Sequence record: NC_054934.1
DNA length: 64,000 nucleotides
Source: Escherichia phage teqskov
Reading direction: 5' to 3' (one strand)
The notes below the pieces were generated by a model that searched no databases, was not told the DNA's origin, and worked only from the letters and a program-made list of their open reading frames with translations. Positions within the stretch are counted from its first letter, which is position 1. Each line of letters starts with the position of its first letter. Below, in pieces: positions 18,296 to 31,169 of the stretch. The translations under genes were made by a program, and so were the position numbers.

Positions 18296-18368
18296 TGGGA
18301 ATTAGCCAAGTTGGTAAGGCATAGCACTTTGACTGCTAGATGCAAAGGTTCGAGTCCTTTATTCCCAG
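18296..18368 (+). tRNA. tRNA-Gln (anticodon UUG)
   Basis: cloverleaf read by hand: acceptor tgggaat/attccca, anticodon loop cTTTGac, T-loop ttcgagt. Confidence 0.8.
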
Positions 18369-18369
18369 C

Positions 18370-18456
18370 GCGAGAATGGTCAAATTGGTAAAGGCACAGC
18401 ACTTAAAATGCTGCGGAATGATTTCCTTGTGGGTTCGAGTCCCACTTCTCGCACCA
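18370..18456 (+). tRNA. tRNA-Leu (anticodon UAA), long variable arm, CCA encoded
   Basis: acceptor gcgagaa/ttctcgc, anticodon loop cTTAAaa, T-loop gggttcgagtccc. Confidence 0.8.
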
Positions 18457-18461
18457 AATTT

Positions 18462-18535
<74 letters not shown>

Positions 18536-18545
18536 ATTTAATTTA

Positions 18546-18619
18546 CTCCGTGTAGCTCAGTTTGGTAGAGCGTCTGCTTTGGGAGCAGAATGTCGTAGGT
18601 TCAAATCCTGCCGCGGAGA
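18546..18619 (+). tRNA. tRNA-Pro (anticodon UGG)
   Basis: acceptor ctccgtg/cgcggag (one G-U), anticodon loop tTTGGga. Confidence 0.75.
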
Positions 18620-18621
18620 CT

Positions 18622-18711
18622 GGAGGCGTGGCAGAGTGGTTTAATGCACCGGTCTTGAAAACCGGCAGTCGCTCCGGCGACTCATAGGTTCAAATCCTAT
18701 CGCCTCCGCCA
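18622..18711 (+). tRNA. tRNA-Ser (anticodon UGA), long variable arm, CCA encoded
   Basis: acceptor ggaggcg/cgcctcc, anticodon loop cTTGAaa. Confidence 0.8.
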
Positions 18712-18716
18712 GTTTT

Positions 18717-18792
18717 GCTGATTTAGCTCAGTAGGTAGAGCAGTTGACTGTTAATCAATTGGTCCATGGTTCGAATCCATGCATGTCCGCCA
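18717..18792 (+). tRNA. tRNA-like gene, probably chimeric or defective (anticodon position reads GUU)
   Basis: normal D, anticodon and T arms, but 5' acceptor gctgatt pairs with 3' catgtcc at only 3 of 7 positions. Confidence 0.5.
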
Positions 18793-18918
18793 AACTTGTG
18801 ACAGTTGTCACATTAATATCTACTTGACGCGATTATAGGGGTTGAACTGATCACACTTCTCTTAATTTCGTGTGAAGACATCTTGATTGTTGGAGTAGGT
18901 ATTGCTGTGAACTAATTA

Positions 18919-18995
18919 CGGGGTGTAACTCAATTGTATAGAGTAGCGGTCCTCTAAACCGCAGGTTAAAGGTTAGAATCCTTTCACCCTGACCA
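18919..18995 (+). tRNA. tRNA-Arg (anticodon UCU), CCA encoded
   Basis: acceptor cggggtg/caccctg, anticodon stem gcggt/accgc with loop ccTCTaa. Confidence 0.75.
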
Positions 18996-26943: not shown

Positions 26944-27164
26944 TGGCAAAGATAATTATTGAAGGTTCTAAAGATGTGCTAAATGCTTTCGCCGAGTGGT
27001 TTAGTAATTCAGGCGAACAGCAATTTAACGAAGCGTGGAATATGGGTGATATTGATGGAATTTATCCTACTACAGAAATTTCTGTTCAGGGATATGGCAT
27101 TCATGAACCTATTCGTTTAGTTGAATACGATTTATGTACTGGTGAGGAAGTCAAATATGATTGA
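26943..27164 (+). CDS. hypothetical protein
   Basis: 73 aa ORF overlapping upstream stop. Confidence 0.5.
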   Translation: MAKIIIEGSKDVLNAFAEWFSNSGEQQFNEAWNMGDIDGIYPTTEISVQGYGIHEPIRLVEYDLCTGEEVKYD

Positions 27165-27453
27165 AGATATTAAAGGTTATAAGCCACATACCGACGAAAA
27201 AATCGGTAAAGTAAATGCTATTAAAGACGCTGAAGTTCGTTTAGGACTTATCTTTGATGCTTTATACGATGAATTTTGGGAAGCATTTGATAGCTGTGAA
27301 GATGATGAACTCGCGAAGAATTACGCCGAAAGCCTCGATCAGTTAACTATTGCTAAACGAAACTCAAAGAAGCCAGTATGTGGGCTTGTCGTGCAGTGTT
27401 CCAACCAGAGGAAAAATACTAATGGCTCAATTAAGTGCAGGGTTTGGTTATGA
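27157..27453 (+). CDS. hypothetical protein
   Basis: 98 aa from ATG overlapping previous stop; 3' end overlaps the next ORF in another frame. Confidence 0.4.
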
Positions 27454-27700
27454 GTATTATACTGCCCCTCGTCGTGTATCTGTCGCTCCTAAGAAAATTC
27501 AAAGTCTTGATGACTTCCAGGAAGTAGTCCGTAAAGCTTTCCAGGACTATGCACGTTATCTTAAAGAAGATTCACAGGACTGTCTCGAAGAAGATGAAAT
27601 TGCTTACTATGAGCAGCGTCTTGAACAGCTTAAAAACTTACATGAGGTTCGTGCAGAAGTTTCAAAGTCTATGAATAAATTGATTAGATTTAAAGAATAA
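27422..27700 (+). CDS. hypothetical protein
   Basis: 92 aa from ATG with purine-rich SD. Confidence 0.45.
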
Positions 27701-27702
27701 CT

Positions 27703-27732
27703 GTTTACTTTTCCTCTTGACTGTGGTATAAT
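27703..27732 (+). promoter_or_regulatory. early promoter upstream of regB
   Basis: GTTTAC, 18-nt spacer, TGgTATAAT. Confidence 0.55.
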
Positions 27733-27759
27733 TTTTCTATCAGTTAAGAGGAGAATAAC

Positions 27760-28221
27760 ATGACTATCAATACAGAAGTTTTTATCCGTCGAAATAAGCT
27801 TCGTCGTCACTTTGAGTCGGAGTTTCGTCAAATTAACAATGAGATTCGTGAGGCATCAAAAGCAGCAGGAGTCTCATCGTTTCATCTAAAATATTCTCAA
27901 CATCTTCTTGATCGTGCAATTCAACGGGAGATTGATGAGACATATGTTTTTGAATTATTCCATAAAATAAAAGACCATGTTTTAGAAGTTAATGAATTCC
28001 TGAGTATGCCTCCGCGTCCTGACATTGACGAGGATTTTATTGATGGGGTTGAATATCGTCCTGGACGTTTAGAAATCACAGATGGAAATCTTTGGCTTGG
28101 ATTTACGGTTTGTAAGCCTAATGAGAAGTTCAAAAACCCGTCACTTCAATGCAGGATGGCAATTATCAACAGTCGTCGTTTACCAGGAAAGGCTTCTAAA
28201 GCAGTAATTAAAACTCAATGA
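27760..28221 (+). CDS. regB: probable RegB site-specific endoribonuclease
   Basis: 153 aa (T4 RegB size), located upstream of vs.1/tk as in T4. Confidence 0.65.
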   Translation: MTINTEVFIRRNKLRRHFESEFRQINNEIREASKAAGVSSFHLKYSQHLLDRAIQREIDETYVFELFHKIKDHVLEVNEFLSMPPRPDIDEDFIDGVEYRPGRLEITDGNLWLGFTVCKPNEKFKNPSLQCRMAIINSRRLPGKASKAVIKTQ

Positions 28222-28228
28222 GGTAAGC

Positions 28229-28774
28229 ATGAGAAAAGCACTACTCGCTGGTCTATTGGCCATTTCAATGATGGCACATAGCTCCGAGCATACTTTCAGT
28301 AATGTCCAACTCGATAACATGCGTTACGCGTATCAATTCGGGGAACAATTTTCTAAGGATGGAAAATATAAAACACACAAAAATATCCACAAGAGCGGAT
28401 TAGGTCATATAATGGCTGCTATTTTATGGCAAGAAAGCTCTGGCGGAGTTAATTTAAAATCTAAACCAAAGCATCACGCCTACGGAATGTTCCAAAATTA
28501 TTTGCCTACTATGCGAGCAAGAGTTAAGGAACTTGGTTATAATATGACCGATGCTGAAATAAAAAGAATGTTGAATAAACGGTCCAATTCAGCTTCCTGG
28601 GCGTACATTGAACTTTCTTATTGGTTAAATATACATAAGGGCGATATAAGAAAAGCAATATCCTCTTATAATTCGGGATGGAATGTTAAAGCAGGTTCTA
28701 AATATGCTTCTGAAGTCCTAGAAAAGGCTAATTACCTTAAAAATAATAAACTTTTGGAAATAGTAAATGACTAA
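28229..28774 (+). CDS. secreted lytic transglycosylase-like protein (T4 vs.1-like)
   Basis: 181 aa; N-terminal signal-like segment; SLT motifs ILWQESSGG, YGMFQN, SSYNSGW. Confidence 0.65.
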   Translation: MRKALLAGLLAISMMAHSSEHTFSNVQLDNMRYAYQFGEQFSKDGKYKTHKNIHKSGLGHIMAAILWQESSGGVNLKSKPKHHAYGMFQNYLPTMRARVKELGYNMTDAEIKRMLNKRSNSASWAYIELSYWLNIHKGDIRKAISSYNSGWNVKAGSKYASEVLEKANYLKNNKLLEIVND

Positions 28775-29108
28775 AATTTTGGTTTTATGTATAGGATTAA
28801 TTTCATTTTCTGCGTTAGCAGATACATCATATACTGAAATTAGAGAGTATGTAAACCGTACTGCCGCGGATTATTGTGGGAAAAATAAAGCATGCCAAGC
28901 TGAATTTGCGCAGAAATTAATATATGCATATAAAGACGGAGAAAGAGATAAATCAAGCAGATACAAAAATGATACATTGTTAAAACGATATGCTAAAAAG
29001 TGGAATACCTTAGAATGTTCAGTTGCGGAGGAGAAAGATAAAGCCGCTTGTCATTCAATGGTTGACCGTTTAGTAGATTCTTATAATCGAGGATTGAGTA
29101 CTAGATGA
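28767..29108 (+). CDS. small secreted protein (vs-locus)
   Basis: 113 aa; N-terminal hydrophobic signal-like segment; four Cys. Confidence 0.5.
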   Translation: MTKILVLCIGLISFSALADTSYTEIREYVNRTAADYCGKNKACQAEFAQKLIYAYKDGERDKSSRYKNDTLLKRYAKKWNTLECSVAEEKDKAACHSMVDRLVDSYNRGLSTR

Positions 29109-29584
29109 TTGTAAAATATATCAAGGGCGATATTGTCGCCCTATTTCTTCAAGGTAATATTATTGCGCATGGGTGCAATTGCTTCCACACAATGGACTCT
29201 GGCGTAGCAGGTCAATTAGCAAGAGCCTATCCTAAAATTTTGGAAATAGATAAAACCACTACCGAGTACGGTTCTCGTGATAAATTAGGCGATATGTCTA
29301 TTGTTTTTAAACATAATCCTACAGGATTTGGTATATGCTATAACCTGTATACGCAATATGAACCGGGTCCTAATCTTGATTATGGTGCTTTAGTAAACTG
29401 CATGATAGAATTAAATCTACAGGCAGAAACCCTTTTGTTTAAACCAGTAATTTACATTCCACGCATAGGTTGCGGTATTGCTGGCGGCGATTGGGATAAG
29501 GTTTCTAAATTAATCGACATGTTTACTCCTGATATTGATTTAATAGTGGTGGATTATGAAAGTACATTACCCGCATCCGTTTGA
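29105..29584 (+). CDS. macro-domain-like protein
   Basis: 159 aa; KGDIVALFLQGNIIAHGCNCFHTMDSGVAGQLARAYP and C-terminal IYIPRIGCGIAGGDWDKV fit macro-domain nucleotide-binding loops. Confidence 0.55.
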   Translation: MIVKYIKGDIVALFLQGNIIAHGCNCFHTMDSGVAGQLARAYPKILEIDKTTTEYGSRDKLGDMSIVFKHNPTGFGICYNLYTQYEPGPNLDYGALVNCMIELNLQAETLLFKPVIYIPRIGCGIAGGDWDKVSKLIDMFTPDIDLIVVDYESTLPASV

Positions 29585-29768
29585 TCCTAAAAACAAAGTG
29601 GAAATTATTCGTCAATGGGAACGCATTTGCCGTACTAAATGTCCAATTAATAGTCCGCATGATGTAGATAAAGACTATATTGGAACATTCGTTGAATATA
29701 CCTTTATTGATAAGAAAGGTCGTAAACAGCACGTAGAAGAATATTGCTTAAAGGTTACATGGTTATGA
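29556..29768 (+). CDS. hypothetical Cys/His-containing small protein
   Basis: 70 aa ORF, overlaps upstream gene. Confidence 0.45.
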   Translation: MKVHYPHPFDPKNKVEIIRQWERICRTKCPINSPHDVDKDYIGTFVEYTFIDKKGRKQHVEEYCLKVTWL

Positions 29769-29971
29769 GCCAAACAAGTATTCTTAAAAATGCCCACTGC
29801 GAAAAGTGTGAATGGCCGGTTGTTTTTGCTTTATGTAATGATGAAATGGCTTGTGATTTCGATTATTGGTGCTATTGTTCTAATAAAGGATGCATCAATC
29901 ATAAAGGTGAAGGATTTTATTCAGGATTTTATCCTTATCCTGATTTCGTTAAAGAAGGTAAACCAAAATGA
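29765..29971 (+). CDS. hypothetical Cys-rich small protein
   Basis: 68 aa, Cys-rich, possible zinc-binding. Confidence 0.45.
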   Translation: MSQTSILKNAHCEKCEWPVVFALCNDEMACDFDYWCYCSNKGCINHKGEGFYSGFYPYPDFVKEGKPK

Positions 29972-30141
29972 ATAGTTTTGAGTTACAATATGAAGTGTTA
30001 CGTGAGCTTGATAATTTAATTGAACTCGCTGTCAATAAAGGTTTTGCCATTGGAATCGGTCAAAAAGATACTGGTCATTTAACCATGGAAATATTTAAGC
30101 AAAAGCGAATTATTTTAAAACTCCTGGAAATTAATATATGA
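29968..30141 (+). CDS. hypothetical small protein
   Basis: 57 aa ORF found by hand; both ends overlap neighbours by ATGA. Confidence 0.4.
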   Translation: MNSFELQYEVLRELDNLIELAVNKGFAIGIGQKDTGHLTMEIFKQKRIILKLLEINI

Positions 30142-30323
30142 GTCTGAGTAAAGAACAAAAAGATAAATTGTTTGAGCTTATCCATGAACTTCTAGATGAG
30201 CATACAGAAGCAAACACCTTTTATGATGAATACGGCCCGCTATCTCCCGAACAACAGGAAGAATTTGCTGATCGGTTTGATAAGAAAGAAAACGAATTAA
30301 TAGCTTATGTGAATACGCTTTAA
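30138..30323 (+). CDS. hypothetical acidic small protein
   Basis: 61 aa ORF. Confidence 0.5.
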   Translation: MSLSKEQKDKLFELIHELLDEHTEANTFYDEYGPLSPEQQEEFADRFDKKENELIAYVNTL

Positions 30324-30332
30324 GAAGGTGAT

Positions 30333-30914
30333 ATGGCGAGTTTAATTTTTACTTATGCAGCAATGAATGCTGGAAAATCTGCTTCTCTTTTGACTGCTGC
30401 GCATAATTATAAAGAACGCGGAATGGGTGTATTAGTTCTTAAGCCTGCTATTGATACTCGCGATTCTGTCTGTGAAGTCGTTTCTCGCATTGGAATTAAA
30501 CAGGAAGCGAATATTATTACGGATGATATGGATATTTTTGAGTTCTATAAATGGGCTGAAGCACAAAAAGATATTCATTGCGTATTTGTAGATGAAGCCC
30601 AATTTTTAAAAACTGAACAAGTGCATCAATTGAGCCGAATTGTTGATACATATAATGTTCCTGTTATGGCTTATGGATTAAGGACTGATTTCGCTGGAAA
30701 ATTGTTTGAAGGTTCTAAAGAACTTTTAGCGATTGCAGATAAACTTATTGAACTAAAAGCAGTTTGTCATTGTGGTAAAAAAGCGATTATGACAGCTCGA
30801 TTAATGGAAGATGGAACACCAGTTAAAGAAGGTAATCAAATCTGTATTGGTGATGAAATTTATGTTTCTTTGTGTAGAAAACACTGGAATGAATTAACTA
30901 AAAAGCTCGGTTAG
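30333..30914 (+). CDS. tk: thymidine kinase
   Basis: 193 aa; P-loop AMNAGKS; C-terminal zinc-ribbon cysteines; T4 tk size. Confidence 0.9.
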   Translation: MASLIFTYAAMNAGKSASLLTAAHNYKERGMGVLVLKPAIDTRDSVCEVVSRIGIKQEANIITDDMDIFEFYKWAEAQKDIHCVFVDEAQFLKTEQVHQLSRIVDTYNVPVMAYGLRTDFAGKLFEGSKELLAIADKLIELKAVCHCGKKAIMTARLMEDGTPVKEGNQICIGDEIYVSLCRKHWNELTKKLG

Positions 30915-30956
30915 TGCAAAAGTTATAAATAGGTTTATCTAACTAAAGGGGTATAT

Positions 30957-31169
30957 ATGCTACAATTAACTGAAAAGCAACTTCGCAATCTTACTGTTCT
31001 TCAATTAGATGAAATTCGTAGGGAAGTTGGAAATGTTATTTCAGCTTTGCGTCGAGAAGTATCACTCAACCAATCTCCGGCAGACTATACTAGATTGCGA
31101 AATTTTGAAAAATACCTTGATAAAGTTAAGGCCGTGCATCGGCATAAAGTAAATACAGGACAAAAATGA
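30957..31169 (+). CDS. hypothetical protein (rI.1 position)
   Basis: 70 aa ORF between tk and rI. Confidence 0.5.

Follow-up and report, generated by a model that had tools for sequence, protein, structure and literature searches.

Among the phage genes that counter the host defence system DarTG2, tk.4 of phage T4 is the counterpart of the gene described here. When a T4 transposon library was challenged on a DarTG2-expressing host, tk.4 was the single significant hit, and a clean knockout of the gene renders T4 sensitive to DarTG2 (10.1101/2025.11.20.689424, a preprint of November 2025). The gene's new name, adfM, stands for anti-DarT factor Macrodomain. The evidence in this preprint takes the form of plaque and Tn-seq phenotypes, and the enzymatic removal of ADP-ribose from DNA by T4 AdfM is the inference of its authors (10.1101/2025.11.20.689424). 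The finding fills a gap left by earlier work, in which T4 without adfA and adfN was still resistant to DarTG2; T2 was also reported to be DarTG2-resistant (PMC11825919).

The name AdfM has been given independently to a second phage protein, gp104 of PhiKZ (Cell Reports 2026, PMC13309987). It, too, is a free-standing macrodomain with which a phage counteracts DarTG2, although it is imported into the phage nucleus, a structure that T4-like phages do not possess. In vitro, gp104 strips the ADP-ribose added by DarT2 from a TNTC oligonucleotide, and mutation of an asparagine reduces this activity (PMC13309987). By analogy, the activity shows that ADP-ribose removal is a strategy that works in phages.

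The third system of relevance is SCO6735 of Streptomyces coelicolor, an enzyme that outperforms both DarG and TARG1 in clearing thymidine-linked ADP-ribose from DNA and saves E. coli from DarT toxicity (PMC9411070). Its activity is fully lost in the Q85A and Q85E variants and nearly all lost in N27S. Asn27 positions Gln85, and the proposed mechanism is water-mediated and backbone-assisted (PMC9411070).

The tk.4 locus of phage teqskov

The stretch of DNA analysed here, referred to as the window, comprises 64,000 nucleotides of Escherichia phage teqskov (NC_054934.1). The ORF of interest encodes 159 amino acids from an ATG start codon (Table 1), and the two glycine-rich loops that were quoted for it in a preliminary description, made from the sequence alone, were recovered exactly in its translation. 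The gene order is regB, vs.1, vs, the tk.4 ORF, tk.3, three small ORFs, tk, rI.1 and rI. The preliminary description had placed the ORF upstream of tk, and tk does indeed lie downstream, though not directly, since four small ORFs separate the two.

As it is located between vs and tk.3, the ORF holds the position of T4 gene tk.4, and the vs - tk.4 - tk.3 synteny is common to the window, T4 and phage ECP2301. Its product is 57.4% identical to T4 Tk.4 over 155 amino acids (BLASTP, E 1.5e-69), the first 14 residues being the same in both, and on this comparison the ORF is a T4-like tk.4 (adfM) ortholog. A megablast search with positions 28200-31000 matched 753 phage records, nearly all of them Tequatrovirus (T4-like) phages with Escherichia and Shigella as hosts, the best being Escherichia phage ECP2301 at 99.1% identity. 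GenBank labels for the ORF vary between hypothetical protein, phosphatase, Poa1p-like, Appr-1-p processing protein and macro domain protein.

Table 1. Features of the tk.4 region in the window, with protein identities to the T4 counterparts
Feature	Position	Strand	Protein identity to T4	Basis or remark
Best sigma-70-like promoter match, TTTACT-17-TATAAT with TG extension, upstream of regB	27704..27732	+		promoter scan
regB	27760-28221		99%	
vs.1	28229-28774		100%	
vs, valyl-tRNA synthetase modifier	28767-29108		97%	
ATGA overlap of vs stop codon and tk.4 start codon	29105..29108	+		coordinates and sequence; identical in T4
tk.4 / adfM CDS, stand-alone macro domain, 159 aa	29105..29584	+	56% (57.4% by BLASTP, 155 aa)	ORF; Pfam; AlphaFold2; fold matches; synteny
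Divergent block relative to T4, 40-78% nucleotide identity (60-nt windows)	29143..29600 (end approximate)	.		sliding identity, boundary alignments
Loop 1, AHGCNCFHTMDSGVAGQLA, residues 21-39, invariant H22-G23-C24-N25-C26 and G33-x-A35	29165..29221	+		invariant alignment columns
Codon AAT, Asn25; equivalents SCO6735 Asn27 and PhiKZ AdfM N23	29177..29179	+		alignments
Codon CAA, Gln84, at the catalytic-Lys position; equivalent SCO6735 Gln85	29354..29356	+		HMM and MAFFT alignments
Loop 2, PRIGCGIAGGDW, residues 119-130, diphosphate-binding G-x-G loop	29459..29494	+		alignments
tk.4 3' end overlapping tk.3 start, 29 nt	29556..29584	+		ORF coordinates
tk.3	29556-29768		93%	
tk, thymidine kinase	30333-30914		99%	
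rI.1			99%	
rI			100%	

The ATGA overlap suggests that vs and tk.4 are translationally coupled. At the other end of the gene the overlap with tk.3 is much longer than in T4, where it amounts to just 4 nt, and the window protein is 4 amino acids longer than T4 Tk.4. Within positions 27000-31000 a promoter and terminator scan returned 10 promoter-like sites against 16.2 in shuffled sequences, and with fewer sites than in the shuffles, hence no enrichment, the scan is uninformative as a whole. The sole good promoter match in this region is the site upstream of regB, which is a possible early promoter for the packed same-strand run of regB, vs.1, vs and tk.4.

Several further observations concern the surroundings of the gene. 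The three small ORFs between tk.3 and tk (29744-30323, plus strand) encode 75 (Cys-rich), 57 and 61 amino acids and stand in place of T4 tk.2 and tk.1; the 61-aa ORF, the last before tk, resembles T4 Tk.2 (54%), and the 75-aa and 57-aa ORFs have no T4 counterpart in the region. This segment forms a second mosaic patch, adjoining that of tk.4. The tRNA cluster at 18296-18995 (plus strand) contains genes for Gln, Leu, Gly, Pro, Ser and Arg tRNAs according to ARAGORN, and a partial Rfam tRNA match at 18724-18781 (51 bits, model positions 8-63 of 71), not called by ARAGORN, is possibly a truncated tRNA remnant between the Ser and Arg tRNAs. T4 has additional tRNAs at this place. Across the whole window the Rfam scan returned only tRNAs. 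The annotations of T2 (AP018813) and T6 (AP018814) contain many implausible product names for small ORFs of this early region, such as 'tail sheath monomer', 'terminase small subunit' or 'major capsid protein', and the names in these two records are not to be trusted. Finally, in the HIDEN-SEQ preprint growth in minimal medium depleted no T4 gene more strongly than the neighbouring vs (10.1101/2025.11.20.689424) and thus, together with the DarTG2 phenotype of tk.4, two adjacent and overlapping genes have conditional phenotypes.

A macro domain of the ALC1-like/TARG1-like class

The window protein matches the Pfam Macro family PF01661 with 30.8 bits, above the gathering threshold of 22 (E 3.2e-7), across profile positions 2-117 of 118. 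The AlphaFold2 model, built from a 65-sequence alignment, has a mean pLDDT of 93.7 and a pTM of 0.88 and consists of a single domain with the three-layer alpha/beta macro fold. A Foldseek search of this model against the PDB gave TARG1 (E 1.4e-9, TM 0.73/0.82), Poa1p (E 6.9e-9), BT1257 and the DarG macrodomains as top matches, and the closest structural neighbours belong to the ALC1-like/TARG1-like class, well apart from the MacroD, viral and PARG classes. On the basis of the Pfam, AlphaFold2 and Foldseek results together, the window protein as modelled is assigned to the ALC1-like/TARG1-like macrodomain class. A family profile searched against PDB sequences ranks BT1257 first (8e-19), followed by TARG1 (2.8e-16), SCO6735 (2.5e-15), Poa1p (5.6e-15) and Mtb DarG (1.7e-11).

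The 65-sequence alignment extends to homologues of 38% identity and shows no variation at G8, H22, G23, N25, C26, G33, A35, D49, L61, N80, Y82, Q84, P119, G122, G124 and W130. The same residues are essentially invariant in two larger sets, one of 121 sequences (the 120 best word-index matches and the window protein) and one of 140 (139 further representatives of clusters at 50% identity and the window protein). N25, G33, G122 and G124, all invariant, lie in the N-x(6)-G-G and G-x-G loops, and conservation reaches 90% or more at A126, G127 and G128. The macro-domain reading of the preliminary description, which had been drawn from these two glycine-rich loops, is therefore upheld on three sides, with the Pfam score, the predicted fold and its structural matches all in agreement, and the loops themselves are kept by homologues down to 38% identity.

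The family is large. By tblastn a homologue is found in 2749 of 50,697 phage records from many host genera, and a search of a library of 1.84 billion proteins with the family profile recovers 1161 clusters (50% identity) when the E-value limit is 1e-30 and 9225 when it is 1e-10. With homologues in this many phage records and a profile family of this size, a chance ORF is ruled out. A survey of viral NAD and ADP-ribose systems reported macro domains in 41% of myoviruses (PMC9503650), so that the presence of one in teqskov is ordinary. A bacterial homologue from Pelagimonas phthalicica (P0096, 40% identity) has neither a DarT-like nor any other toxin gene as neighbour and is a stand-alone gene, a trait it has in common with SCO6735; its genomic context therefore adds no functional clue.

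A glutamine at the position of the catalytic lysine

T4 Tk.4 occupies the same vs/tk.3 locus and belongs to the same fold family (155 as opposed to 159 amino acids). Its H-G-C-N-C and Y-T-Q motifs are identical to those of the window protein, and a P-R-I-G-x-G-I loop is present in both, whereas the second loop reads GCGIAGGDW in the window and GAGIGKGNW in T4. The calculated pI differs also, at 4.9 for the window protein and 5.9 for T4 Tk.4.

The glutamine of the Y-T-Q motif, Gln84, lies where TARG1 (K84), DarG (K80) and PhiKZ gp104 (P-T-K) have a lysine. In the HMM alignment of the family profile with TARG1, 'tq' stands opposite 'TK' and Ala126 opposite Asp125, and the same placement of Gln84 opposite the catalytic lysine emerges when nine reference sequences are aligned with MAFFT. 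Every one of the 121 and of the 140 sequences has Gln84, which amounts to all 259 homologues compared and the window protein itself, and Asn25 occurs in 119 of 119 and 140 of 140 homologues; both residues are also kept in the Tk.4 proteins of T4, T2 and T6. The same glutamine is found in BT1257, SCO6735 and ALC1. Asn25 and Gln84 align with Asn27 and Gln85 of SCO6735, and alignment to the solved structures would bring N25 close to Q84 in space. Loop 1 aligns with H24-V25-C26-N27 of SCO6735 and with H23-S-C-N-C of Poa1p.

SCO6735 and BT1257 of Bacteroides (PDB 5e3b and 2afc/2fg1) are glutamine-type, ALC1-like proteins and are 25-28% identical to the window protein. Some differences exist between them and the phage protein. 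Where SCO6735 has H-V-C-N-D, the window protein has H-G-C-N-C, such that the invariant Gly23 aligns with Val25 (or Ile), the residue credited with holding the proposed catalytic water by its backbone carbonyl. As the role proposed for Val25 is a backbone one, the side chain at this position may not matter. The DNA-contacting Lys34 of SCO6735 corresponds to Ser32, and the mobile loop that follows the glutamine in SCO6735, a proposed DNA clamp, is about 6 residues longer and carries Lys89, whereas the loop of the window protein is without lysine. SCO6735 is furthermore basic (pI 9.5) and the window protein acidic, as is PhiKZ AdfM (pI 5.05). Given that the DNA-active PhiKZ protein is equally acidic, acidity alone is no argument against a DNA substrate.

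The DarG macrodomains (Mtb, 5m3i; T. aquaticus, 5m31/5m3e) are more distant. They rely on a catalytic Lys80 in an F-P-T-K motif, in contrast to Gln84 of the window protein, and DarG possesses a C-terminal DarT-binding domain and an adjacent darT; the window protein has neither, its neighbours being vs and tk.3. The NCBIfam DarG model NF048014 gives 22.4 bits on the window protein against a cutoff of 250, and the PADLOC DarG model 22.2 bits, compared with 36 for T4 Tk.4 and 133 for PhiKZ gp104. The description of the T4 protein in the preprint as a DarG homologue was considered and rejected as an account of its closest family, since the scores of the DarG models fall far short of their thresholds and the lysine used in catalysis is missing. 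PhiKZ gp104, on the other hand, is a close relative of DarG with the P-T-K lysine motif and a match to Mtb DarG at E 9e-25, and a BLASTP alignment of 23 residues between it and the window protein falls short of significance (E 0.012). From the DarG-model scores, the match of gp104 to DarG and this BLASTP result, the two AdfM proteins thus appear to represent different subfamilies of the same macrodomain class. One name is now in use for two non-orthologous macrodomains, the DarG-like, lysine-type gp104 of PhiKZ and the SCO6735/BT1257-like, glutamine-type Tk.4 of T4, and the two probably use different chemistry.

The remaining members of the class compared here, human TARG1/OARD1 and yeast Poa1p, also differ at the active site. 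The Lys84/Asp125 dyad of TARG1 is replaced by Gln84/Ala126. Of the residues mutated in deposited Poa1p structures, His23 corresponds to the invariant H22, Ser30 to T29 (a threonine in 71 of 121 homologues) and Phe152, which is not conserved, to A126. The chemistry of Tk.4 is, by analogy, most likely that of SCO6735 and not that of DarG or TARG1. The grouping of T4-type AdfM with SCO6735 rather than DarG, suggested by these alignments, is a modest new point that goes beyond the literature we found.

A divergent allele in a conserved region

The neighbours of tk.4 are nearly identical in the window and T4 (Table 1). As far as 29142 the nucleotide identity is mostly 97-100%; it drops to 40-78% in the divergent block and is back at 93-98% within tk.3. 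Given the limits of the block, the divergence spans essentially the tk.4 coding sequence only. The block starts directly after an 8-bp GC-rich hairpin at 29124-29142, which is identical in the window and T4. This hairpin (AGGGCGATATTGTCGCCCT), followed by a T-rich run, falls within codons 7-13 of tk.4, and the divergence from T4 begins at the next base. The hairpin could mark a recombination boundary or could be a regulatory or attenuating structure.

An allele of the window type at 90% identity or more is present in 311 phage records. For the T4 type the corresponding number is 224, and another 159 records have it at 80-90%; the window type is the more common of the two in sequence databases. 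Tequatrovirus genomes thus hold two very different tk.4 alleles, about 57% identical to each other, an observation that also goes beyond the literature we found. The pattern suggests that the alleles are exchanged as a near gene-precise cassette within a region that is otherwise 97-100% identical to T4. All of the family-invariant residues are kept in the window-type allele. Indirect support for this allele by way of the resistance of T2, or by way of T6, was considered and rejected; T2, T4 and T6 all carry the T4-type allele, and the window type is therefore without indirect phenotypic support.

It is conceivable, if doubtful, that the two alleles are arms-race specialists, directed at different DarT2 variants or, alternatively, at DNA thymidine in the one case and RNA uracil or protein in the other, with T4-type AdfM having become an anti-DarT2 factor independently of the DarG-derived AdfM of PhiKZ.

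Proposed function of Tk.4

The reading that we favour, with a probability of roughly 0.7, is that tk.4 of the window encodes an early, single-domain glycohydrolase that removes the ADP-ribose added by DarT2 from phage DNA. The gene would be expressed early, within the packed regB - vs.1 - vs - tk.4 run. According to the literature, the host DarTG2 system would then free DarT2, which ADP-ribosylates thymidines in single-stranded phage DNA and so blocks replication. Tk.4 is envisaged to grip the ADP-ribose with its two glycine-rich loops, with Asn25 holding Gln84, which in turn would position the distal ribose. As with SCO6735, a water network may then hydrolyse the N-glycosidic bond between ribose and thymine, releasing ADP-ribose and leaving an intact thymine in a normal template. 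The fold, family, synteny and identity of the active-site residues are established for the window protein, which would be expected to be active like its 57%-identical T4 counterpart and to act catalytically on DNA. The preliminary description had suggested that an anti-defence role was possible and could be probed with DarT-type toxins, and the DarTG2 sensitivity of the T4 knockout supports that suggestion, although the role is already published for T4 and is thus not new. Several points speak against the glycohydrolase reading, the breadth of the family (see below) among them. The window allele differs at 43% of positions from the T4 allele, which is the bearer of the DarTG2 phenotype, and it has neither the catalytic lysine of DarG and TARG1, nor the aspartate of TARG1, nor the Lys34, Lys89 and longer loop of SCO6735.

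An unlikely alternative is that Tk.4 removes ADP-ribose from RNA or protein, either instead of or besides DNA. The possible substrates include uracil-ADP-ribose on RNA, Glu/Asp-linked ADP-ribose on protein, the products of other host ADP-ribosyltransferase defences, and the marks made by the phage enzymes Alt, ModA and ModB. T4 Alt and the Mod enzymes modify arginine, and to our knowledge ordinary macrodomains do not cleave arginine-linked ADP-ribose, which would put the Alt and Mod marks out of reach. As to the other substrates, SCO6735, the closest characterised enzyme type, also works on protein (PMC9411070) and on RNA uracil-ADP-ribose, and TARG1 is similarly broad. In one paper, nevertheless, the assays shown detect no activity of SCO6735 towards 2'-OH ADP-ribosylation of RNA, and on phosphate-end RNA ADP-ribosylation that paper is inconsistent, describing the enzyme as inactive in its results and active in its discussion. 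The breadth of the family, with its many host genera, 2749 phage records and 1161 clusters at E<=1e-30, is wider than a counter to a single defence might be and may point to a substrate range beyond the products of DarT2, and it could be that the two alleles, so far apart in sequence, act on different substrates. On the other side, DarTG2 is the sole condition with a reported phenotype for T4 tk.4 (10.1101/2025.11.20.689424), and in the CmdTAC paper, searched for a link between a T4 macrodomain and mRNA ADP-ribosylation, only entries in the reference list were found and Tk.4 is unmentioned.

The database names suggest a different role, that of a small-molecule enzyme acting as a Poa1p-like ADP-ribose-1''-phosphate phosphatase or as an O-acetyl-ADP-ribose deacetylase, which would dispose of by-products that arise from NAD in RNA repair or sirtuin reactions. 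The window protein matches PHROG 335, annotated as 'phosphatase' (E 3e-70), the GenBank labels include 'Poa1p-like' and 'Appr-1-p processing', and Poa1p is a significant match in both sequence and fold, sharing the H-x-C-N-C motif that contains its His23. The labels are, however, homology transfers, Phe152 of Poa1p is Ala126 in the window protein, the equivalent of Ser30 is a threonine in only 71 of 121 homologues, and the family profile matches BT1257/SCO6735 and TARG1 better than Poa1p. We know of no 2'-phosphate junction made by T4-type RNA repair (Pnkp and Rnl1), and hence there is no obvious source of Appr1p. Such a role, which would also leave the DarTG2 phenotype of T4 unexplained, is regarded as quite improbable. 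More improbable still is a non-catalytic mode of action, in which Tk.4 would shield ADP-ribosylated DNA, sequester an ADP-ribose-derived immune signal or inhibit DarT2 directly. Precedents for such a mode do exist, as reader-only macro domains are known, for example ALC1, which also has a glutamine at the Q84 position, DarG neutralises DarT partly through binding, and AdfA and AdfB are direct DarT inhibitors (PMC13309987). The window protein, though, is a bare macro domain of 159 amino acids with no counterpart of the toxin-binding C-terminal domain of DarG, and the SCO6735-type catalytic Asn and Gln are invariant in 259 homologues, the pattern expected of an enzyme. The invariance of these catalytic-type residues therefore makes a non-catalytic mode unlikely.

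Implications

On sequence grounds, tk.4 of teqskov is a divergent member of the tk.4/adfM macrodomain counter-defence genes. Its recognition in the preliminary description indicates that a reading of the sequence alone is able to pick out a true anti-defence gene, here one whose biology had already been described for T4. The existence of two alleles and the glutamine-type active site both bear on the prediction of which phages are resistant to DarTG2 and on the choice of mutants for biochemistry.
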